This document shows, piece after piece, positions 7,441 through 58,626 of a stretch of DNA of 64,000 nucleotides (position 1 is its first letter; every line of letters starts with the position of its first letter). Source of the stretch: Chiloscyllium plagiosum (Eukaryota); contig NC_057718.1 of NCBI RefSeq assembly GCF_004010195.1, positions 98,779,794 to 98,843,793 of the forward strand. Direction: 5' to 3'. Under the pieces are notes generated by a model. The model was not told where the DNA came from, ran no database searches, and saw only the letters and a list, made by a program, of their open reading frames with translations. The position numbers were made by a program, and so were the translations under genes.

Positions 7441-7892
7441 TTTCACATACGGTCAGTTGGAAATTGCCCCTTGAGCATCAGGTCCACAGTGTTCACATGC
7501 TTTTATCTTTCCCTGACGATACTATCAGTACTTTGCTACAGCAAAGTCTCCACATGATTGTCTGCATTTATGATTTGAAACTTACAGACATTTTGTACTT
7601 GACAACACGTGGTTTGCATGACCAACACACACCCATAAAGGTTTGAACAAGCAAAATTTAATTTATGTAGGATAGTCATGGGTACCAAAGAAAAGAAACT
7701 ATTCTTGCAGTATGTCTGTTTGCTACAGAAGTGAATGGTTGAATTTGTCACTTGGTCCCTGTGAATCCTTTTTACAGATTTGTAAAACAGGATTTGTTTG
7801 GTATTTTAACAACCAGAAACAAATGAATCTAGGTTGTGTGGGAAGTTGAAATATTAAAAATCTAAATTCTCCAACCAGCTAATTAAAGCTGT

Positions 7893-8252
7893 CCTCTTCA
7901 CCCCCCTTGCCCTCCATTCAATCTGTCTCCTCTCAGATCTCCTCCTCAATTATCTTTCGTTTGCTCTCCCCTTTTCCCTCCCTTTTCTCTTTTGCTCCTT
8001 TCCCCCTCCTGCCATTTTGTTCTTCCCCTCCCCTCATCTCCTTGTCCCCCAACATTCACCCCTGCCGGTCCTTTTATTTTTCTCTCTATTTCCTTCCCCT
8101 CCTCTCCTTTCACCCACTCTCCTCTGCCAACTCCAGTCCTCCCCTTTCCTCCACCCCTTCTCCTCGGTCCCACCCACCCTTGAACCCCTCCCCACACATA
8201 GCCACGTTTCTTCACTCATTTTTCTCACCTTCCTCCTTTCCTTTCTGTCCCT
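7893..8252 (+). repeat. Polypyrimidine low-complexity tract
   Basis: About 360 bp strongly dominated by C/T on the + strand. Confidence 0.9.
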
Positions 8253-9371
8253 GCTAAGGAATGGATGTCAGATTTTAGAACAGAGCTACTGTTGAAATGA
8301 ATGCCTTGAAACTGTCTCAAGGGATTTGGCAGCACTGGTGATATTTTCAATGTTTTGCTGCAGCTTTCACCTCTACAACATTGCACAGGTTACAGATTAC
8401 CTTGACTGAAAGAGCTTGCACAATTTCCTTACATATATTTTGTTGCCTCGAATAATTGCATGTGAATTGTGAATGCATCCTCTAACAAGAATTTGAAATC
8501 CTGGTTTGCCAGCCCAGTGAAGGGAAGGGCAAAGCAGCTTTACATTTTGTCTAAAAGATCACACAATTCTTAGGCGTGGGACCAATCTGAGTGAATTCTT
8601 CTTTTGTTCTGTCCATGTCATGTGGAGTCAGAACACGAGTCGTTTTGCTGAAGTGCTAGGTTAATAATTCCAGTAATTACTTTGCTGAACGCACCTAATT
8701 TGCAATAAATATAAAATGTGAATATACCCATGAATGATTAAATATGTTGAGTGGTTTTTTTTTTGCAGGGTATGGCATTTTTGGTATTGTTCATATGCAT
8801 GAAATCCCTTGAGGAGCACAATAGATTGGGATTAGTTGATAGGCTGGGAATAAATAAGATGGGGTTTGGCCTTCTGTATTTGCATAAAAAGTAAATCCTC
8901 TTTTGTGGATCTCTTTAATCTTTTGCATAGTGCAGCCTGAGTGGGCCAACAAAGTAAAACTGTAAAGATTTAAATTAAATCTGATGACTACAGTGTGATT
9001 TGCTGAGAGGCAAGGATTCCCTGAGAGAACATTCATCTACAGCAGAAACTAATTATAATGAGCGAGGATGACTGAGCACAGCTAGGCATTAGGCTTGTTC
9101 AACCTTTCATTTTGTCAGTGAGAAGGTACTTTGCTTTCTCCTCCCCCAACGTCCTACAATTCCTTTGATGTTATGTTTTAGTCACAAGTCCTACTCATTA
9201 ACTCAGGGTCTTTCCTAATATTTATAGTTGAGACTTTAAGGCCTGAATTTGGATGTTGTGCCTAGTTCATGAGAGGTTTGTTAAAGAATTAAATATACTC
9301 TAGTACAATTTTTTTTTAAAATTGTTATTTCTCACCACGCAATTCATATTTACCAGAAGCCTGAATATTAA

Positions 9372-14727: not shown

Positions 14728-14955
14728 CTAAAATCAGAAAATGGTGGAGAGACTCAGAAGGCCTCAGCAGGTGAGACAAACAGATTTATCATTTTGGGTT
14801 CAATGACTCTTGTTTGGAATTGTGCAGAGGTTCCGGAGAAGAGTCATTTTCGACTCAAAAGGTTGCTCTCTCCAAAGATGGTGCCAGACTTGTTTTGTTT
14901 CTCTAGCATTTTCTGTTATTTTAATTTTAGCTTTCCAGCATCCACAATGTTCTCC
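14728..14955. mobile_element. Old Penelope-like palindromic element
   Basis: Inverted arms aaaatcagaaaatggtggagagactcag / tttctctagcattttctgttattt with a decayed hammerhead remnant near 14833-14865. Confidence 0.6.
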
Positions 14956-17009: not shown

Positions 17010-17236
17010 AAGAGAACTGCAGATGTGATAAATCAGAAACAAAAACGAGAATTGCTGGAAAAGCTCAGCAGGTCCGGCAGCATCTGTGGAGAGAAATCAG
17101 AGTTAATGTTTCGAATCCAGTTTGGGGTCCAGTGACAAACTGTAAAGAAGGGTCACTTGATTTGAAACATTAACTCTGATTTCTCTCCACAGATGCTGTC
17201 AGACCTGCTGAGCTTTTCCAGCATTTCCTGTTTCAG
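17010..17236. mobile_element. Penelope-like palindromic element
   Basis: About 65-bp inverted arms (gctggaaaagctcagcaggtc..ggagagaaatcagagttaatgtttc and its reverse complement) around a decayed hammerhead. Confidence 0.85.
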
Positions 17237-18772: not shown

Positions 18773-19361
18773 CAATTAAACTAAATCTTATTCTAACTCT
18801 AAACTAATCCTGTCTGCCTACCCATCAATGATGGCAGCACACTCATCTCTGAATCAGAAGGATTGTAGGTTCAATTCCAACTAGAAGATTGCCTGCATGT
18901 GGTCCCTATCCCTTTATTCCCTGTCTGTTCATGTTCAGTGCAAACGGTTTCTGGGACAACATAGTGGGTTGTCTAAACATGCTATTGTACCAGGTTGAAG
19001 TTATAATGCAACTGGGTGTGACGACCAGTTAGCTGGAAGCATCTACTGGAGGTGTCTCACACTTTATGGATTTGGTGGGGGACACAAGGATAGTGACTTA
19101 CTCATTTATGTTGACACAATGTTGAGTTTAACTAAAACAGTCAGATATTACATTCACAAAACATTGTGGTGAATTCTGTGCATGATTATTTCTTCAAAAG
19201 CAGACCAAGATTGAGCTCTATCACAATGTTGTGAGGCAGTTAATTAGATCAAACCAGTCGCTTACTTGCAGTGATATCTTTGGCTGAATATCTCTTACAA
19301 AAATATTGTTTTAACTTTGCTTCCTGTTATTTCCCTTTAAACTGTCACCACTTTATTTGTG

Positions 19362-19547
19362 AAGAGTGTGGTGCTGGAAAAGCACAGCAGATCGGGCAGC
19401 ATCTGAGGAGGTGGAGAATTGAAGAAGGGCTTATGCCCGAAACCTCGATTCTCCTGCTCCTCGGAGGCTGCCTGACCAGCTGTGCTTTTCCAGCATCACA
19501 CTCTCGACTCTGATCTCCAGCATCTGCAGTACTCACTTTCTCCTCCG
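19362..19547. mobile_element. Penelope-like palindromic element
   Basis: 12-bp TSD actttatttgtg (19350-19361 and 19548-19559), inverted arms, core tgaaga-agggcttatgccc-gaaac. Confidence 0.9.
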
Positions 19548-20021: not shown

Positions 20022-20500
20022 CTAAGATGAGCGGAGAAGGATTTGAAATGGCCCTGGGGGAAACCTTTTCACACAGAGAGTGGTTCATGTGTGGAATGAA
20101 CTGCCAGAGGAAGTGGTGAATGCACATACAGTTACAACTTTGCAAAGGCATTTGGATAAATACATGAATAGGAAAGGGTTGGAGGGATATGGGCTGGAAA
20201 TGTGTTGCTGGAAAAGCGCAGCAGGTCAGGCAGCATCCAGGGAACAGGAGAATCGACGTTTCGGGCATAAGCCCTTCTTCAGGCTTATGCCCGAAACGTC
20301 GATTTTCCTGTTCCCTGGATGCTGCCTGACCTGCTGCGCTTTTCCAGCAACACATTTCCAGCTCTGATCTCCAGCATCTGCAGACCTCACTTTCTCCTTG
20401 GAGGGATATGGGCCAAGTTCAGGCAGGTGGAACTAGTTGGGATGGACTAGTTGGACCAAAGGGTCTGTTTCCGTGCTGTATGACTCTATGACTGTGTATG
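20022..20500 (+). mobile_element. HER1-like CR1 3' end, interrupted at 20195-20397
   Basis: Motif VHVWNELPEEVV..RHLDKYMNRKGLEGYG and a (ctatgact)n tail. Confidence 0.9.
20195..20397. mobile_element. Young Penelope-like palindromic element
   Basis: 81-bp inverted arms (20193-20273 and 20282-20362) with 1 mismatch, 35-nt tail, TSD ttggagggatatgggc (20179-20194 and 20398-20413). Confidence 0.93.
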
Positions 20501-22985: not shown

Positions 22986-24053
22986 ACAGGCGTACTACGT
23001 CAGAGAGCTACAATAAGTTTCAATTTCTACCCCATTGCTTCAGTTTTATGTTTGGTGCATTCCAGAATATGGGTCCAGCATCTTTAAAGAATTTGACTTA
23101 ATTCCAATAACAACTTAAGATAAGCTCAATGTCAAAACAAATAAAAGAATACTGGCCCAGTCAGTGATGCTCATATTTTATGCTATCTCACTTACCCCTT
23201 CTCTTGCATTACCATAGAATTGTGTAGCAACAATAATTTCCATTTAAACAGCACCTTTTATGTAACGAATGAATTAAAAACAAGGGCACTGGATATGCAG
23301 TGGAACATAAGCCCTTCATGTAAGTGATTGATATACACAACTTTCGACCGAAATGTGGTATCGTGCAGAACGTCCTGTTAATTAGACTCCTACCTGCAGC
23401 CTTCAGCTTGAATATAAGTTGTACCCTTGTTGGCTTGGAAGTGTGAACTGATAATGACCCAGCAAGGGAATGGAGGTATCTGAGACTCCTGTAAATGGTG
23501 AGACCACCAATGTATCTCCTTAACTAACAGGATTTACTCATTCAGAAAGAAACAACAGGAAAATTAAGAAGGTTAATGGAGGGGATCCAGAAGTGTGAAA
23601 TTAAATTCACAAGGTTTGGAGGGTTTGAGGCTGAATAGGCTGGGGCTATTTTCCCTGAAGCATCAGAGGCTGAGGGGTGACCCTATATAGATTTATAAAA
23701 TCATGAGGGACATGAATAAATAGACAAGGTGTTTACCCCAAGGTGGGGGAGTTCAGAACTATAGGACATAAGTTAAGGTAAGAGAGGAAAAATTTAATCG
23801 GGATCTAAGGGGCAGCATTTTCATACCGAGAGTGGTGCATGTATGGAATGATCTGCCAGAGGAAGTGGTGGAGGCTGGTAAAATTACAACATTTAAAAGG
23901 CATCTGGATAGGTACATGAATAGGAAAAGTTTGGGGGATATGGGCCAAATCATGGCAAATGGGACTAGATTAATTTGGGATAGCTGGTTGGCATGGACGG
24001 TGTGGACAAGTTGAACCAAAGAATTTGTTTCCATGCTGTACAGCTCTATGACT

Positions 24054-24140
24054 AAAAATCACACAACACCAGGTTATAGTCCAACAGGTTTCTTTGGAAG
24101 CACTAGCTTTCGGAACACTGCTCCTTCATCAGGTGGTTTT
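24054..24140 (-). mobile_element. 87-bp Penelope-like pLTR insert
   Basis: Exact 13-bp TSD cagctctatgact (24041-24053 and 24141-24153); same family as the palindrome at 43744-43948. Confidence 0.9.
24101..24135 (-). ncRNA. Minimal type I hammerhead ribozyme, apparently intact
   Basis: CAC-CUGAUGA-A-GGAGC AGU GUUCC-GAAA-G-CUA-GUG: stem I CAC/GUG, 5-bp stem II, loopless palindromic stem III (AGCU), NUH = CUA. Confidence 0.8.
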
Positions 24141-25229
24141 CAGCTCTATGACTTGTATGACTCTAAGACACCGAAGAGAGTTAAAAATGAAAAGAAAGAC
24201 TGAATTGAAGATTAGAAAAAGTGAGACTGATATGCAACAAAAGCATTTTGGCATTTTTAAATTCTCTAACAACAATTGATTATTTCTTGGAAGAAAACAG
24301 TATAAATTGTTCCCTTTCATGACCAGTGAACGTAACTGACATTCATTTTCAGGTTGTTAAAATGGTATTTATGCTGTTAATCATGAGCTTTGACATTCTG
24401 TAGCAAGTTTTTAAGGTTAATAAGGAGGCTAAGAATGATATGACATTTGTGTGGGGGAATTGGGGAAATCAACCAGATCTGCAATTAGGGGCATATCCTG
24501 GAATTTCTGGCTAGTTCATGCATTAAGAATGACATACATTGTTCAAAAACAGTGATTTTTTTGCAGCAAAATTCTCCTCATTCTCTCATTTGTCTTGTCA
24601 GAAACAAACAATGGACAGGGGAGACAATTGCACGTTCAATGTTCGTTACTGCTGGTTTGGTTATTCATTGTCTTTACCTTGTGAAACTTCTTTCGCCATT
24701 AAGGGCAATTAAACCATTATGATAGAAATAAAATTTTAATTAATTTATTTTCTTCAGAAAAAAATTGCCCCAGGGAAAGTAATATAATTGACTGTAGAAT
24801 CATTCTGCATCCCCCTTTGCCACTAGAGATTTATTTTCACATAAGAAGATTAAAGAATAAAATTTGGCTGGGACTTTTTTTAAAAGAAAGATTGTGTATT
24901 TCTCATTGAAGCTGCATTAATGTTACCTCATTTCTTCTGCAGTCTTTTGCGGTTTGCTGTCTCCATGTGAACTACACCTTCTGTCACAACTGGTGTCTCA
25001 AGTCTCACAAATTTCATTTCTTTAAACTCTGATTTATAATCCCTTGGTTCAGTTTGCCTCTGTGTCTTGATTCCACTCTTTTCAAACTGCTGTTATTATC
25101 ACACATTCGGGATGTTGAAATTTCCATCAAGGATGTTTTTTCATTCTGTCTTCATTCATACATCCCCATGATATTGGATCCTCTCTCCTTTATATATGAT
25201 TCTCTCCCATCCCTTCGACTTTTCTTCAG

Positions 25230-25928
25230 TCATTTTTGGGATGTAGGTATCACTGATGCGACCAGCAATTTATTGCCCATCCCTAATTACCCAGAGGGCA
25301 GTTAGGAGTCAACCTGGAATCACATATAGGACAGACCAGATAAGGATAGTGGCTTCCTTCCTTAAAGAACATTTCCTTAAATGGACCTTATAGAGGTTTA
25401 TAAAATCATGATGGGCATGGATAGGATGAATAGCCAAGGTCTTTGTTCCAGAATAGGGGAGTCCAAAGCAAGAGGCATAGGTTTAAAGTGAGAGGGTGAA
25501 GATTTAAAATGGACCTAAGGGACAACTTTTTCATGCAGTGGGTGGTACGTGTATCGAATGAGCTGCCAGAGAAAGTGGTGGAGGCTGGTACAATTACAAC
25601 ATTTAAAAAGCATCTGGATGGGTGTACGAATAGGAAAGATTTAGAGGGATATAGGCCAAATGCTGACAAATGGAATTAGATCACTTTAGGATATCTGGTC
25701 AGTATGGACGACTTGGAAGGGTCTTTTTCTATGCTATACAACTCCATGACTGTAGTGAACCAGATGAGTCCAGTCAACAATGATAATTGTTAGATTCATA
25801 ATTCCAGATTTTTACTGATTTTAAATTCCTTCACTGACCATGGCACAACTCAAATCCAGGTCCCCAGAATATTTCTTGGGTCTCTGGATTAATAGGCTGG
25901 GAAGAATACCACAATGCCATCATTTCTC
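25230..25928 (-). mobile_element. tRNA-derived SINE (family C), split by a HER1 fragment
   Basis: Head ttaatccagagacccaag..ctggggacctggatttg on the - strand; body gtgaaccagatg; tail tttattgcccatccctaatt. Confidence 0.75.
25385..25752 (+). mobile_element. HER1-like CR1 3' end
   Basis: gaccttatagaggtttataaaatcatg..gaatgagctgccaga..catgact. Confidence 0.9.
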
Positions 25929-31877: not shown

Positions 31878-31964
31878 ATTCTGGATCAGTGGTGCTGGAA
31901 GAGAGCAATTCAGGCAGCATCCGACGAGCAGCAAAATCGACGTTTCGGGCAAAAGCCCTTCATC
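31878..31964 (-). mobile_element. 87-bp Penelope-like single-arm insert
   Basis: 8-bp TSD attcatag (31870-31877 and 31965-31972); hammerhead truncated in the core (GAUGA-A-GGGC UUUU GCCC-GAAAC-GUC). Confidence 0.85.
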
Positions 31965-32599
31965 ATTCATAGGCTAAGTAAAATACACAGAAGTGGTGAA
32001 TTTATTAAATGTATTAAGACTGAATTGGCCATCCCTCTTTTGTTGCTGATAGAATGAATTTTCCATTGAGGTAGTTGTGGAGTATTTGCTGTACAGAAGC
32101 AAACCATTCCGCCGCACAACTGTAAATTGACTAGCAAATTTTGCAGAAAGCAATTCTTGATCGACTTAGTTTGAAAATAGAATAGATGGAACTGGAACTC
32201 ATTTAATCTGTTTTCTACAGCTGCAACTATAAGGGGGTTGATCAACTCAGTACAGGTAATGGTGGAAACATGTCAAGTGCCATTTTAGTGAAGGCATTGT
32301 AGAGATGTCTGAGGTGGCTGTGTGAAAACAGGCACTGTCCCCTTTGATGCTTGTTGTAGCATCCAAACTGGAAACTGGCCTAGCTCAAACTCATACGTGC
32401 TAGCATGTCAACGCTCCAGACAAGGTTAGGAGGCAATTTGACAGAGTTGTATAAAATCAGGAGGACTTTAGAGGAAGTAAATAAAGAAACACTATTTCAA
32501 AGGTTGATAGCTAGAGAAAACAAGGTTTAAGATGTGTTGCAGAAGAACCACATGAGGAAATCTTGATTTTACACAATAGAATTTGGACTTAACTAGGAG

Positions 32600-33394: not shown

Positions 33395-34050
33395 AATGAC
33401 AGGACATTAGTCCCCTCAAATCTGAACTGCCATGCATTAAGATTGCAGCTGATCTGTTTGGGTTTTGAATTCTACACCTTGATAGTCTTTTATTCCCCTG
33501 CTGAACAAGAATCTATCTACTAGATTAGAGTGGTGCTGGAAAAGCACAGTAGGTCAGGCAGCGTCTGAGGAGCAGGGAAATCAATGTTTCGGGCAAAAGC
33601 CTTTCATCAGGAATGGAGGCTTTTGCCAAAAATCTATCTACCTCTGCCTTAAAAATATTCACTGTTTTCTGCATCTTCTGAGGCAGAGAGTTCCAAAGTT
33701 GCACAACCTTTTGAGAGAAAAATGTCTCCTCATTTATGTTTTAAAAGGGTGACTCCTTATTTTAAAACAGTGGACTCTAGTTGTAGACTGACCCACACGA
33801 GGAAAACCCTTTCCACATCCACGATAACTCACCATTCAGGATCTCACGCACTTCAATCAATTCTCGTCTCGCTCTTCTACACTCAAAACAGGCCCAGTCC
33901 GACCAACCTTCCCTCATAAGAATACCCATTCATTTCATGTAACAGTCTAATAGATCTTCTCTGATCTGTATCCATTGCATTTATATCCTTCCATAACTAA
34001 GAAAATCAAAACTGGGCACAGTATTTGTAATGTGGTCTTACCAATGCCCT
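33395..34050 (-). mobile_element. Decayed CR1 3' end with a Penelope-like insert
   Basis: ttctgaggcagagagttccaaa, cagtatttgtaatgtggtct and other CR1 3' blocks. Confidence 0.7.
33521..33630 (-). mobile_element. Penelope-like insert, single arm plus short fold-back
   Basis: 11-bp TSD aatctatctac (33510-33520 and 33631-33641); - strand attc-CUGAUGA-AAGGCUUUUGCCC-GAAAC-AUU. Confidence 0.85.
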
Positions 34051-38139: not shown

Positions 38140-38308
38140 ATGCTGAAAGAACTGCAAATGCTAGATATCAGAAACATGAAAACAGAAATTGCTGGAAAAG
38201 CACAGCAGGTTCTGAGGAAGGGTTACTTGACCAGAAAAATTAAGTCTGATTTCTCACCACACATGCTGCCACATCTGTTGAAATTTTCCAGCAATTTCTG
38301 TTTTTGTT
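38140..38308. mobile_element. Penelope-like palindromic element (17010 family)
   Basis: Arms aaaacagaaattgctggaaaa / ttttccagcaatttctgtttt; core gtt-ctgagga-agggttacttgacca-gaaa. Confidence 0.8.
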
Positions 38309-40383: not shown

Positions 40384-40526
40384 TTCTGGATCAGTGGTGC
40401 TGGAAGAGCACAGCAATTCAGGCAGCATCCGATTTTGCTGCTCGTCGGATGCTGCCTGAATTGCTGTGCTCTTCCAACACCACTGATCCAGAATCTGGTT
40501 TCCAGCATCTGCAGTCATTGTTTTTA
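40384..40526. mobile_element. Penelope-like palindromic element
   Basis: 15-bp TSD ccacaatatctttgt (40369-40383 and 40527-40541); 49-bp arms with 1 mismatch; 33-nt tail. Confidence 0.92.
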
Positions 40527-40646: not shown

Positions 40647-40779
40647 GAGAAAGTGAGGTCTGCAGATGCTGGAGATCAGAGCTGAAAATGTGTTGCTGGT
40701 AAAGCACAGCAGGTCAGGCAGCATCCAAGGAACAGGAGAATCGACGTTTCGGGCATAAGCCCTTCATCAGGGCAGAGTG
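40647..40779 (-). mobile_element. Penelope-like single pLTR with tail and intact hammerhead core
   Basis: 11-bp TSD cctacaatggg (40636-40646 and 40780-40790); - strand CUGAUGA-A-GGGC UUAU GCCC-GAAAC-GUC at 40741-40771. Confidence 0.9.
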
Positions 40780-40867: not shown

Positions 40868-41065
40868 AAGGCAGAGGTGTGTACTGCAGATGCTGGAGAT
40901 TAGAGTCAAGATTAGAGTGGCGCTGGAAAAGCACAGCAGGTCATGCAGCGTCTGAGGGGCAGGAAAATCGATGTTTTGGGCAAAAGCCCCATGAAGGAGT
41001 TTGCCCGAAGCGTTGATTTTCCTGCTCCTAGAATGCTGCCTGTACTTTTCCAGCACCACTCTAAT
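40868..41065. mobile_element. Penelope-like palindromic element inserted in a CR1 tail
   Basis: 13-bp TSD catttggttcttc (40855-40867 and 41066-41078); inverted arms attagagtgg..ccactctaat. Confidence 0.9.
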
Positions 41066-42407: not shown

Positions 42408-42806
42408 TCATAGAATCCCGATAGTGTTGGAAGCAGGCCATTCAGCCCACACTGACCCTCTGAAGAGCATCCTATGCAGATCTACTCCATCCCTATGACC
42501 CTGCATTTCCCATGTTTTATACACCTATCCTGCACATCCCTAGACACGACAGGCTATTTAGCATGAGTCCAAAAGGGTGGCACTGGAAAAGCACAGCAGG
42601 TCAGGCAGCATCTGAGGAACAAGAGAGTCAACGTTTCAGGCATAAACTCTTTATCAGGATTGTTCCTGATGAAGGGCTTACACCTGAAACATCGACTCTC
42701 CTGCTCCTCAAATGTAGCCTAAACTGCTATGCTTTTCCAACGCCACCCTTGAACTCTGACTCTCCAGCATCTACAGTCCTCAGTTTCTGTTATTTAGCAT
42801 GGCCAA
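42408..42806 (-). mobile_element. HE1-like SINE 3' half, interrupted at 42566-42790
   Basis: catagaatccc..gaagcaggccattcagccc..ctgcacatccctagacac..tttagcatggccaat. Confidence 0.75.
42566..42790. mobile_element. Penelope-like palindromic element with two divergent hammerhead cores
   Basis: 11-bp TSD tatttagcatg (42555-42565 and 42791-42801); cctgatgaagggcttacacctgaaacatc on + and a decayed mirror copy on -. Confidence 0.9.
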
Positions 42807-43160: not shown

Positions 43161-43743
43161 CTCCCTTTGGAAAGGTCTTTGCTACCTTTCCAAAGACTCA
43201 GCACTGTGTTCTCCTCATAAGGCACCATAGACCATTTTTTAATATGATGTGGGCATTTCTGAAAGGGCCAACATTTGTCACCCATTCGTTATAGATTTTC
43301 AGAGGGTGGTGGTTAGCCGTCTTCTTGAACTGCAGCACTCCATGTGGTGTAGGTACATCCACAGCATCTATTAGGGATGTTTACTCTAATAAGCATCAAA
43401 TTATATCAAGCTGGAGGGACTCCTGATTGACTATTTTAGGAAAAAAAAAGTCATAGGCAAGTTCTCATTCTCCACATGGGGAAGACAGGAAGATGGACCC
43501 ATAATTGATGGATTATGTCAGTGCAACACTGTCTGCGACTCACACTCTACAATGTTACAGGTGATGGGGAAAGCTGTGTGTGTCCCCTGCCATTAGCCTG
43601 GAGGATACCCTTAAATGGGCAATTTATACCCATATCTCTCCAATATACTGGGCAGCAGGAGAGTTCTTGTAGTGCATTGGTGGTGTTCCTGCCTCTGAGC
43701 TTGAAGGCCAAACTCAAGTCCCATTTGCTCCATAACATCTCTG

Positions 43744-43948
43744 GGCAAAGTTAAAAATCACACAACACCAGGGTATAGTCCAACAGATATATTTGGAAGC
43801 ACTAGCTTTTGGAGCGCTGCTTCTTCACCACCAAGAGACAGTGCCTCAAAAGCTAGCGCTTCCAAATAAACCTGTTGGATTATAACCTGGTATTGTGTGA
43901 TTTTTAACTTTGTCCACACCAGTTTAACACCGGCTCCTCCAAATCATG
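43744..43948. mobile_element. Penelope-like palindromic element (24054 family) inserted in a family D SINE
   Basis: About 65-bp arms aaagttaaaaatcacacaacaccagg.. / ..cctggtattgtgtgatttttaacttt; 12-bp TSD ataacatctctg / atagcatctctg. Confidence 0.88.
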
Positions 43949-47154: not shown

Positions 47155-47318
47155 GGAGAAAGTGAGGACTGCAGATGTTGGAGATCAGAGTCGGAAGGTG
47201 TGGTGCTGGAAAAGCATGGCCGGTTAGGCAGGAGCCAAGGAGCAGGAGAATAGGATTCTCCTGGTCTTCAGATGCCGCCTGACCTGCTGTGCTTTTCCAG
47301 CGCCACACTTTTCAACAT
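47155..47318. mobile_element. Penelope-like palindromic element, hammerhead region deleted
   Basis: TSD ttctacacaca / ttctacataca (47144-47154 and 47319-47329); tail ggagaaagtgaggactgcagatg plus inverted arms. Confidence 0.85.
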
Positions 47319-51012: not shown

Positions 51013-51270
51013 AAACAAGAACCAACAGCGCTGGAGAAACTCAGCAAGTCTGGCGGCATCTGGAAACAATTTTGAGTGAGGGAAACAGTGCTAATGTTTT
51101 GAATCCAATGTGACTTGCCTTTAGAACTGAAGAGGAAGTTGGGAAAGTGTATACTTCACACTGTGGTACAAGGTGGGGAGGAGCAGTGGAAAGATGGGAA
51201 GGTCAAGGGAAAGTTAGAGGGCAAGGGAGATTAGTGATTACAGGTGTCACAGGACAAAACACAAAGGGCA
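51013..51270 (-). mobile_element. Old Penelope-like pLTR and 3' UTR fragment
   Basis: gctggagaaactcagcaagtctggcggcatctg arm followed by purine-rich sequence, mirroring 56880-57120. Confidence 0.55.
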
Positions 51271-51366: not shown

Positions 51367-52952
51367 AGAGTCATAGAATCATAGAGATGTACAACACGGA
51401 AACAGACACTTCAGTCCAACCCGTCCATGCCGATCAAATATCCCAACCCAATCTAGTCCCACCTGCCAGCACTTGGCCCATATCCCTCCAAACCCTTCCT
51501 ATTCACATACCCATCCAGATACCTTTTAACTGTCACAATTGTACCAGCCTCCACCAATTCCTCTGGCAGCTCACTCTATACATGCACCACCATCTGCGTG
51601 AAAAAATTGCCCCTTAGGTCCTTTTATATCTTTTCCCACTCTTCCTAAACCTATGCCCTCTAGTTCTGGACTCTCCCGTCCCAGGGAAAAGACTTTGTCT
51701 ATTTATCCTATCCATGCCCCTCATGATTTTATAAACCTTTATGAGGTCACCCCTCTGCCTTCGATGCTCCAGGGAAAACAGCCCCAGCGTATTCAGCCTC
51801 TCCCTTTAGCTCAAACCCTCCAACCCTGGCAACATCCTTGTAAACCTTTTCTGAACCCTTTCAAGTTTCACAACATCTTTCCGATAGGAAGGAGACCAGA
51901 ATTGCACGCAATATTCTAAAAGTGGCCTAACCAACACCCTGTACAGCCAGAACATGACCTCTCAACCCCTATACTCAATACTCTGACCAATGAAGGAAAG
52001 CATACCAAATGCCTTCTTCACCATCCTATCTACCTGTGACTCTACTTTCAAGGAGCTATGAACCTGCACTCTGAGTCGCTTTGTTCAGTAACACTCCCTA
52101 GGAACTTACCATTAAGTATATAGATTTGCTTTCCCAAAATGTAGCACCTCGGATTTATCTAAATTAAACTCCATCTGCGGCTTCTCAGCCCATTGACCCA
52201 TCTGATCAAGAACCTGTTGTAATCTGAGGTAACTTTCTTTGTTGTCCACTACACTTCTAATTTTGGTGTCATCTGCAAACTTACCAACTATACCTTCTAT
52301 GTTCGTATCCAAATCATTTATATAAATGACGAAAAGCAGTGGACCCAGCACCGATCCTTGTGGCACTCCAGTGGTCACAGGCCTCCAATCTGACAAAACA
52401 ACCCTCCACCACCACCCTCTGTCTTCTACCTTAGAGCCAATTCTGTATTCAAAAGGCTAGTTCTCCCTGTATTCTATCCTTGCTAACCAGTCTCCCATGA
52501 GGAACCTTGTCCAGTGCCTTACTGAAGTCCATATAGATCACATCCACCACTCTGCTCTCACCAATCCTCTTTGTTACTTTTTCAAAAAACTCGTTCAAAT
52601 TCATGACTCATGATTTCCCACGCGCAAAGCCATGTTCACTATCCCTAATCAGTCCTTGCCTTTCCAAATCCGTGTAAATCCTGTCCCTCAGGAGTCTTTC
52701 CAACAACATGCCCACCCCCGATGTCACGCTCATCAATCTATAGTCCCCTGGCTTGTCTTTACCACATTTCTTAAATAATGGTACCATGTTAGCCAACCTC
52801 CAATCTTGTGGCACCTCACCTGTGATTATCGATGATACTAAGGGCCCAGCTTCCCTAGCTTTCCACAGAGTTCTAGGGTACACCTGATCAGGTCCTGGGG
52901 ATTTATCCACCTTTATGCGTTTCAAGACATCCAGCACTTCCTCCTCTGTAAT
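51367..52952 (-). mobile_element. HER1-like CR1 LINE, about 1.6 kb with RT domain
   Basis: Motifs KSPGPDQVYPR, PQDWRLANMVPLFKK, GVPQGSVLGPLLFVIYINDLD..KFADDTK; (ctatgact)n tail; stops and frameshifts. Confidence 0.96.
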
Positions 52953-52954
52953 AA

Positions 52955-53130
52955 GCTGGAATCCAAGGTAGATCAGCAGGAGGCTGGAAGAACACAGCAA
53001 GTCAGGCAGCAACAGGAGGTGGAGAAGTGAACATTTCATGACATGAAGAAGGGTTACACTCGAAACATTGACTTCTCCACCTCCTGATGCTGCCTGGCTT
53101 GCTGAGTTCTCCCAGTCTCTTGCTGGTCTA
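52955..53130. mobile_element. Penelope-like palindromic element; rest of its tail at 51348-51366
   Basis: Arms ggtagatcagcaggaggctgg..ggagaagt / acttctcc..cttgctggtctacc; core tgaaga-agggttacactc-gaaac. Confidence 0.85.
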
Positions 53131-56609: not shown

Positions 56610-57125
56610 CTAAAATCAAAACAGAAAGTGAAATAACTCCACAGAAGCTGGTTTACCAACACCAAGTCACTCTTTATTTTTACTTGGAGAATCCTTGATC
56701 CAGCTCCGTCAAAAGCCAGCTCTCAGAGTGAACAGAACCTCTAACACTCTTGTTTATATATGTCAGCCAGGGCTCCCTGATTGGACCAGATTAACAGCCC
56801 CAGTCAGGGAACCTATATTCTACGAAGTCCACCTGGCTGACCTTGTTACAATTACTACAGAAAATGCTTGAGAAACCATTATCAGTGTCTCTTTTGTTAG
56901 TTCTGGTCACCCTCATAGTCTGTTCCACTCGCTCCTCTTCCTTCTCTCAACAGCATAATAACCCCCAATTTCCAGCTACTTTCACTCTGAAGAGGTGTCA
57001 TGCTAGACTCGAAATATTAACTCTGTTTCTCTCTCCACAGATGCTGCCAGACCCTGTTGAGTTTCTCCAGCACTTTATATGTTTATTTCAGAATTCCACC
57101 ATCCACAGTAGTTTGCTTTTATTGA
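56610..57125. mobile_element. Penelope-like element with inverted arm and pLTR, split by the solo LTR
   Basis: ctgaaga-ggtgtcatgctagactc-gaaatattaactctgtttctctctccacagatgctgccagacc. Confidence 0.7.
56629..56859 (-). mobile_element. Solo LTR, 231 bp
   Basis: TG...CA termini (tgtagt..atttca on -), TATA-like tatataaa and AATAAA on -, flanks gaaag / gaaaa; interrupts the arm aaaacagaaaatgct. Confidence 0.7.
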
Positions 57126-57211: not shown

Positions 57212-57450
57212 CAAACAAAAACAGAAATTGCTGCAGAAACTCAGCAGGTCTGGAAACATCCATGGAGAGAAAATAGAGTTACAATTCAAGTCAATTGACC
57301 ATTCTTTAGTTCTGAATAAGTGTCATACCAGACTTGAAATGTTAACTCTGTTTCTCACTCTACAGGTGCCACCAGACTTGTTGAGTTTCTACAGCAATTT
57401 CTAATTTTGTTTGTTTCAGATCTCCAGCATTCCCAGTTCGTTGTTTTATT
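57212..57450. mobile_element. Penelope-like palindromic element (17010 family)
   Basis: Arms aaacaaaaacagaaattgctgcagaaactcagcagg / ttgagtttctacagcaatttctaattttgttt with tail tcagatctccagcat. Confidence 0.85.
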
Positions 57451-57876: not shown

Positions 57877-58626
57877 TGTGACAATGAGCTAAGTGATTTG
57901 AAGATGGGATTAAGCTAAATTAATTGAATTGAAAAGAGTTTTGAACAAATGTGATAAATTGTGACTGATGAATCTTTATATGTACATAAATCTATAATTA
58001 TTGAGATGATATTGTGGCTTTCAGAGATGCATTTTGTCCTTTTTTTTAATGAAGAAAGGTTGAGACAGAAATCCTGAGCATTCTGCTCCAAAGCTAATAA
58101 ACATTTTGTGAGGCCTTGGATATTTTTAAAAGTTGAAACAATAGACACAGCCTGAATGGGTGGGGTCAAGCTCCTGCAGAACCAGGATTTTTTTAGTTGT
58201 ACCTTTCTGTAGCAGTTGCTGGGGACTTGAAGCTGGATGTGGATACTTTTATTCCTCTCTCTGTTGCAGTTAAAAGCTGGTGTTCTCGTGCTGCTGCTAG
58301 AAACGCATGTGAGATGATCTATTTTACTGAATTTGCCTTTGTTAATGGTGTGTTCACGGGATGTTACTATACTAGAATAGATTATTATTAAAATATATAT
58401 TATTTTGTTAAGCATTTTGATAGAGTTACAATTAAGCCTCTTCTTTTAGCTTTATTTTGTCTGTATTTTAATTGCCGTATAAGTGAAGTGTGTTTTGTTT
58501 CAAGCCTGGTAGTTTGACCAATCGAATTGCATCTGGAACACAACGTCTTCCTTTAAAATTAGAACAAGTTAGCATCCTGATTATCTTCTTAATATATTTT
58601 GAGGGGGTTTGGTCTGGTCCATAACA
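57877..58626 (+). mobile_element. Probable solo LTR; 5' boundary uncertain
   Basis: Ends ggtctggtccataaca, candidate start tgtgaca, LTR-like composition; no TSD confirmed. Confidence 0.45.

Follow-up and report, generated by a model that had tools for sequence, protein, structure and literature searches.

An 87-bp insertion in the genome of Chiloscyllium plagiosum (positions 24054–24140 of the 64,000-nucleotide stretch analysed here, hereafter the window) carries on its minus strand all of the bases of a hammerhead core, and the question it raises is whether this is a ribozyme at work or a passenger. We favor the second answer, with a probability of about 0.8: the insert would be a short 3′-end copy, likely inserted by target-primed reverse transcription, from a very abundant repeat that is likely a Penelope-like element (PLE) terminal repeat (pLTR), and its hammerhead is probably a passenger that does not cut here. 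An earlier note, made from the sequence alone, had described the insertion as essentially one complete hammerhead. The size of 87 bp and the completeness of the motif stand, but that description goes too far, as only 35 of the insert's 87 bases belong to the hammerhead. The note also passed over the likely PLE source, the abundance of the family, the decay of this copy and the poly(A) module in its 3′ half.

The insert lies between identical 13-bp duplicates (24041–24053 and 24141–24153), just as the earlier note had reported. At its 3′ junction the last base of the left duplicate is also the next base of the element, a 1-nt microhomology, and contigs of the repeat family align from 24053. At the 5′ junction two bases (24139–24140) are foreign to the family sequence; family pieces run as far as 24138 and then continue in other letters. 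The target (23627–24168, plus strand) is the 3′ end of an older LINE with its short-repeat tail, 75%–87% alike to the repeat end at 51379–51800, which comes after the RVT_1 frame at 52115–52456 on that frame's strand. We take this LINE to be a CR1. Both duplicates hold four bases that are found once in other copies of the LINE end, and both carry a G, at 24043, that is private to this locus where the other LINE copies have T. Because they include non-repeat bases and the private G, the duplicates reach beyond the 8-bp repeat of the LINE tail and are a true target-site duplication. Two short insertions (20179–20413 and 24041–24153) lie in the 3′ parts of one LINE family, and contig joints point to further copies of the insert's repeat elsewhere in that LINE end.

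The hammerhead motif (24101–24135, minus strand) is a complete minimal type I motif and the best in the window. It consists of a 3-bp stem I (5′ arm 24135–24133, 3′ arm 24103–24101); the core box CUGAUGA (24132–24126, with C3 at 24132); an extra A (24125) between positions 9 and 10.1; a 5-bp stem II (24124–24120 with 24116–24112: G-C, G-C, A-U, G-U, C-G) closed by a 3-nt loop; the core box GAAA (24111–24108); a loopless stem III made by the palindrome AGCU (24108–24105); and A17 (24104), with the cut predicted between 24104 and 24103. The earlier note had drawn the core, stems and extra A in this same layout. The motif agrees with the minimal hammerheads (min-HHR) of PLEs in its CUGANGA and GAAA boxes and NUH site, in its extra base (A24125) and its G10.1-C11.1 pair (G24124-C24112), and in its palindromic 15.2–16.2 without a loop III and its short, 3-bp helix I. 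That an extra A and a loopless palindromic stem III occur in natural hammerheads is confirmed by the consensus in PMC4209133, and the note was also right that hammerheads with a loopless stem III have been proposed to act as dimers. A full-descriptor scan of both strands of the window returned this single site. In 60 random windows generated by a third-order Markov model, a loose descriptor gave 0.17 hits per window, and none of the 60 contained a motif with a stem II of at least 5 bp and a loopless stem III. Rfam covariance models gave no match at the gathering score across the whole window; within 23500–24700 they gave five chance-level matches, no hammerhead among them. The note's ranking of the site as the best candidate for an active ribozyme in the window thus survives as a statement about the motif, the sole full-descriptor site, and is not supported as one about likely activity.

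To place the insert in its family, contigs and reads from four of 24 runs were compared with 23900–24560 at 85% likeness: contig sets from the same species (X5) and from two related species (X13 and X18), and one RNA run (X21). The insert's repeat, which we call family A, is plainly hugely abundant in all three species. Counting those on the LINE part, 46,814 (X5), 53,982 (X13) and 44,930 (X18) contigs fall on this interval, and the summed contig depth, which is not a copy number, is 7–10 million at 24061–24083 and 2–3 million at 24107–24129, with ~11 in the unique flank. Contigs depart from the reference at one shared point before 24053/24054 (1465 + 413 in X5, 2231 + 615 in X13, 1893 + 533 in X18), and part of those leaving before 24053 run into an AC-rich tail. 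Upstream of 24138, shared family sequence continues in 297 (X5), 395 (X13) and 347 (X18) contigs. Among the joints listed (15 of 119), seven connect opposite strands, all with one end at 24134–24142, and none corresponds to an empty allele. Go-back joints such as 24087 to 24053 (within 24053–24097) reach a summed depth above 800 in X5 and X13 and suggest a ~36-bp head-to-tail repeat from the element's 3′ end elsewhere in the X5, X13 and X18 genomes.

These features are those of a PLE. Elements of this group that bear an endonuclease have a fixed 3′ end, 5′ truncation, an optional 30–40-nt tail, inverted neighbors and short duplications (PMC8557442, PMC3846280, PMC8969392). Family A has 5′-truncated copies with a common 3′ end, and it has adjacent inverted 5′-truncated copies, both as opposite-strand joints in three runs and at a sister locus in the window (43742–43945), a head-to-head pair in which both cores are broken or missing. 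The right arm of that pair extends ~40 nt into an AC-rich tail (43906–43945); the same optional 30–40-nt tail appears in the loose ends before 24053 and is absent from the 24054–24140 copy. The target-site duplication is short, 13 bp here as compared with the 8–10 bp cited for rotifer PLEs; duplications of 8–16 bp were seen at 10 of the 14 window loci checked, three of them only 8 bp and possibly due to chance. A reverse transcriptase and GIY-YIG gene linked to family A is absent from the window, where Pfam finds one LINE-type RVT_1 among 144 frames. Exact-pattern scans of viral, metagenome and prokaryote genome collections found 0 loci each and no longer, ORF-bearing member of the family, and the supplement of PMC8557442, as far as a search by terms reaches, holds no trace of the window's hammerhead families. 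Membership thus rests on non-coding hallmarks: on account of the fixed 3′ end, the optional ~40-nt tail, the head-to-head pairs and the short duplications, we consider family A likely to be the pLTR of a PLE.

Most of the insert outside the 35-base hammerhead is a poly(A) module, made up of a hexamer, poly(A) sites and a GU-rich tract. The evidence comes from X21, a poly(A) 3′-biased single-cell library of which ~2 in 100 of the run was read. Of the 3,130 reads that align, 24 are at least 99% alike, and first mates lie mostly on the plus strand (2026 versus 428 at 24084–24106). Poly(T) loose ends begin before 24074 in 727 reads and before 24077 in 602, just before the GU-rich tract. As the element is not A-rich there, we read these as true poly(A) tails on minus-strand RNAs, which may stem from few loci. 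The family's poly(A) ends thus fall at 24074–24077, 15 and 12 nt past the hexamer position (24089–24094), though they are not shown to be those of this copy, which has AAGAAA where the family has AAUAAA or AUUAAA. The latter comes from a common variant at 24093 (28%–54% of contig depth; 926 of 1964 first-mate-plus reads) that turns AAUAAA into AUUAAA, the other standard poly(A) hexamer. Behind the poly(A) sites, a GU/U-rich tract (24054–24070) ends at the family's common 3′ end, the putative first start of reverse transcription. These reads show that family A supplies working poly(A) sites to cellular RNA. In the available rows of Fig. S3 of PMC4209133, at least nine of 56 have AAUAAA just past the motif when judged by eye, although their flanks are AU-rich and chance matches are likely. 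A literature search that covered few subscription journals found no paper on poly(A) use beside PLE hammerheads.

The same reads bear on the state of the RNA. Depth on the 5′ side of the predicted cut is nearly as high (1713 at 24107–24129), which indicates that most aligned family reads cross the site uncut, in a library that would lose cut products. Since the inserted copies extend at least 20 nt beyond these tail positions on their 3′ side, transcription of the template RNA had continued past the poly(A) site. Two groups of reads, 524 and 425, carry family sequence upstream of the hammerhead, and at least the polyadenylated RNAs therefore do not start at its front edge. A family variant with its own upstream sequence is seen in X21 reads over 24114–24138, 524 of which leave at 24135; it has length changes at 24100, 24116 and 24119 and points to one or a few highly expressed loci or to a subfamily.

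A sequence of steps can be proposed for the insertion. A PLE endonuclease would have nicked the short-repeat tail of the LINE, as PLE biochemistry suggests (PMC11167929), and the reverse transcriptase would have used the first of two internal starts (24053/24054) and a template RNA that had read through the poly(A) site. This template was probably uncut at the hammerhead, because the copy holds the whole core, as was found for the anole element (PMC11167929). Copying would have ended 6 nt in front of the core, and, more tentatively, it may have ended there because the template RNA begins there; two extra bases would then have been added, and repair would have left the 13-bp duplication. In the parent element a dimeric cut would probably be helped by the element's protein. 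Hammerhead cleavage as the cause of this copy's 5′ end was considered and rejected, the whole core being present. One point against our reading is that the core is unchanged despite the age of the copy, but it is one pick among dozens of window arms, most of which are broken.

Copies across the window end at the front edge of the hammerhead, and for a few the end point is the cut site. Many window copies share this build, so that 24054–24140 is a usual product of these elements and not an exception. An alternative is that the 87–130-nt unit forms a separate non-autonomous mini-element, comparable to a SINE or a retrozyme, whose defined 5′ end lies at the hammerhead and whose short master RNAs are copied in trans by PLE enzymes. 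The 16 arms that reach the core, at 14 loci and in three families, speak for this: except for one pair, in which the arm is its own inverted partner, none has more than ~9 convincing upstream bases in common with another locus (best identity 11–40 nt upstream of the core, 27%–43%), and the seven opposite-strand joints mentioned above, from the 15 of 119 listed, all have one end in the same narrow zone. Nevertheless, family sequence runs on upstream of 24138 in hundreds of contigs and in RNA reads, many arms stop earlier and at scattered places, no tandem array exists at the locus (23000–25500), and the polyadenylated family RNAs, which stop short of the point where inserted copies end on the 3′ side, cannot be the template. 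We consider a separate mini-element unlikely, and the 3′-end copy of a longer repeat the better account.

The other two families are of similar build. Family B consists of 90–130-nt repeat ends that carry a minimal hammerhead (palindrome ACGU) and stand mostly in head-to-head pairs, several with 11–16-bp duplications (19360–19518, 20186–20372, 31889–31966, 33521–33630, 40394–40503, 40648–40778, 40895–41059, 42572–42765, 47180–47314 and 52983–53115); two cores, at 40770 and 20282 on the minus strand, are intact with a stem I that keeps only 1 bp. Of the 16 family B arms, at 8 loci, four have an end no more than 2 nt from the predicted cut (19422, 40430, 47251 and 47254), although a palindrome is centered on that site and all four are in inverted pairs. 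In family A, one listed joint ends at 24103. Such ends are possibly the trace of cleaved templates, or possibly the result of palindrome-guided joining. Family C is a third, older family of the same build (14738–14912, 17032–17226, 38189–38297, 51027–51125, 56987–57080 and 57225–57403). The bases just before its core resemble what we take to be the consensus of an initiator or a 3′ splice site. In Drosophila virilis, the Penelope intron ends at helix I (PMC4209133).

A bolder proposal would make the PLE end module a two-part RNA switch, in which a functional poly(A) signal sits beside a dormant hammerhead that would cut 9 nt ahead of the hexamer. Spread through the genome in very many copies, the module would set where both host and element RNAs end, the poly(A) tail would be cut off once a second family RNA paired with the module or the element's protein bound it, and genome copies would record both kinds of end. 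We regard this as quite improbable. If it were true, copies of one class should end at an RNA start before stem I and those of a second class at the cut site. The second class, if real, would support germ-line cleavage by PLE hammerheads, which is not shown in vivo in the available text of PMC4209133 and PMC11167929; the role of the PLE hammerhead in vivo is described as an open question in the field (PMC8557442, PMC11167929). The end points of the many short family copies preserve where the copied RNAs began and therefore offer a cheap test of the hammerhead's role: if 5′ ends pile up in front of stem I, the RNA would start at that point, and a pile-up at the cut site among copies lacking an inverted partner would demonstrate cleavage in vivo. 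As a single locus, 24054–24140 matters little.

Can this copy itself cut? A monomer is unlikely to, since a loopless stem III cannot close within one molecule. In the parent element, cutting would be expected only in a double hammerhead joined through the AGCU palindrome and exchanged stem I arms. PLE hammerhead variants are said to cleave as dimers, going by the title of a 2016 RNA Biol article by Lunse et al. and a passage in a review. At our locus, C3 and G12 are missing from the nearest same-strand family copy, which lies at a distance of 19,613 bp, a third arm lacks the first box, the other hammerhead families of the window use a different palindrome, and no intact same-strand partner exists in the 64-kb window. 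Published assays give little encouragement: one minimal hammerhead showed no cleavage as a monomer and low cleavage as dimer and trimer (PMC4209133), cleavage by the anole PLE hammerhead requires the protein of that element (PMC11167929), and in the related class of frog retrozymes, dimers cleaved in one of nine cases (bioRxiv 10.64898/2026.07.22.740005). For the anole element, uncut RNA is reported as the main template, with no RNA-seq reads ending at the cut site (PMC11167929). Given the loopless stem III, the monomer inactivity in PMC4209133 and the lone intact copy, the earlier note's active ribozyme at this site is not supported, and we judge the hammerhead unlikely to be active at this locus.

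Folding models, which include no tertiary contacts and had no positive control and so show competition rather than inactivity, give the double hammerhead formed by a pair of 87-mers an energy 5.5 kcal/mol higher than that of two free monomers and 17.1 kcal/mol higher than that of the best two-molecule fold. The probability of a fold with stems I and II and an open core is 1e-2 for 46 nt, 1.6e-3 for the 87 nt and 3e-5 for 287 nt (100-nt flanks). In the folded 87-mer, the stem I 5′ arm pairs preferentially with a downstream segment, and the fold is no better than those of shuffled sequences (z 0.27). In X21, the unique flank (24153–24560) has a depth of 0 and no pile of read ends, in a library that loses a 26–29-nt cut product and most intronic RNA.

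The age of the copy can be gauged from related genomes. One X13 contig (record 8) spans 24112–24560 with 17 differences and one gap; as it covers the 5′ junction, the duplicate and the flank, the insertion is present in a second species. In the same species, X5 records 17 and 24 cover both sides of the junction, and X18 has no contig on 24153–24359. At 24092 this copy differs from the letter found in 97% of X5 depth, the change that turned AAUAAA into AAGAAA. In stem II (24112–24124), the pair 24121–24115 is G-C in ~95% of family depth, and the G-U pair described in the note is, by comparison with the family, a decayed G-C; the loop base 24117 differs from ~60% of family depth. Core positions are not among the differences from the family that were listed. 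On this comparison the copy is old and drifted, with hexamer and stem II both weakened.

These observations also weigh on the idea of a working ribozyme kept by the host, whose minus-strand transcript would cut after CUA, either as a dimer in trans with family RNA or with the help of a protein. All core bases are intact, both stems can form, the insertion is common to two species, and same-strand family RNAs are plentiful in X21, so that partners in trans exist. On the other side, stem II and the hexamer have drifted from the family even as the insertion persisted in one other species, the double-hammerhead fold is unfavorable by the margins given above (from models with no tertiary terms and no control), stem I has only 3 bp, and non-GUC sites are reported to be generally slower in engineered hammerheads. 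We think a host-kept ribozyme very improbable. A host gene was sought around the locus. The window has no long ORF, and internal repeats make up 25% of its length. A Pfam search covered 144 frames (about 141 of the 146 mostly unique frames of at least 60 aa, and about three longer frames; the low-complexity frames at 7858–8292 were left out), and the only match was the RVT_1 at 52115–52456. No host gene was identified among these frames, 20 of 22 exon candidates gave two weak Pfam matches below the curated cut-offs, and one exon candidate found nothing in PDB, the ESM Atlas or 1.84 billion proteins. Elsewhere in the window, the non-repeated segment 58190–58460 contains what looks like a strong 3′ splice site, together with an open frame of 44 codons (58215–58346, plus strand) for which Pfam and the same three protein collections gave no match; the segment may be either a short exon or conserved non-coding sequence.

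That motif and duplication are chance products of the LINE tail, a run of 8-bp repeats that by itself gives short duplicates, can be dismissed, since no such motif arose in the 60 random windows, the duplicate holds non-repeat bases and a private variant, and the insert belongs to a separate, very abundant family. A non-LTR retrozyme is likewise ruled out, as there is a single unit, no tandem array in 23000–25500, and the next same-strand copy is 19.6 kb away and broken.

Among known systems, the closest is the PLE min-HHR of Cervera and De la Pena 2014 (PMC4209133), which shares the type I fold, the short helix I, the extra base between 9 and 10.1, the G10.1-C11.1 pair and the loopless palindromic 15.2–16.2, and which is likewise found mostly as solitary copies spread through the genome. 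Within its Fig. S3, the Marsupenaeus japonicus row has the same CUA site and CAC/GUG arms as this motif, and the Chrysemys picta row has a GC palindrome followed by AAUAAA; the 56 rows of that figure include no cartilaginous fish, and the family A sequence is not among them. This copy differs in its 5-bp stem II with one decayed pair. The available text of that paper makes no mention of the adjacent hexamer as a poly(A) signal, whereas family A uses it. As described by Frangieh et al. 2024 (PMC11167929), PAc, a Poseidon-clade PLE of Anolis carolinensis, also has its hammerhead shortly upstream of two reverse-transcription starts, and these bound an optional 30–40-nt AC-rich tail, as in family A; there uncut RNA is the template and no RNA is reported to end at the cut site. 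The PAc ORF starts inside stem II, whereas at 24101–24135 that frame meets a stop inside the motif. Animal non-LTR retrozymes (PMC7229834; bioRxiv 10.64898/2026.07.22.740005) are of the same type I, non-coding, short and probably moved by PLE enzymes, and solitary monomers are common; however, they are defined by circular RNAs and by tandem units with at least two hammerheads (canonical ones in the 2020 paper, PMC7229834), and this locus has a single 87-bp unit, a minimal motif and a target-site duplication. The intronic hammerheads kept by amniote hosts (RECK, CTCL; PMC6155905) are, like this motif, solitary type I hammerheads in a vertebrate genome, but they are few, canonical and conserved, and this one is drifted and one of very many minimal copies. 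The insertion at 24054–24140 is one worn copy of a motif class already described in 2014.
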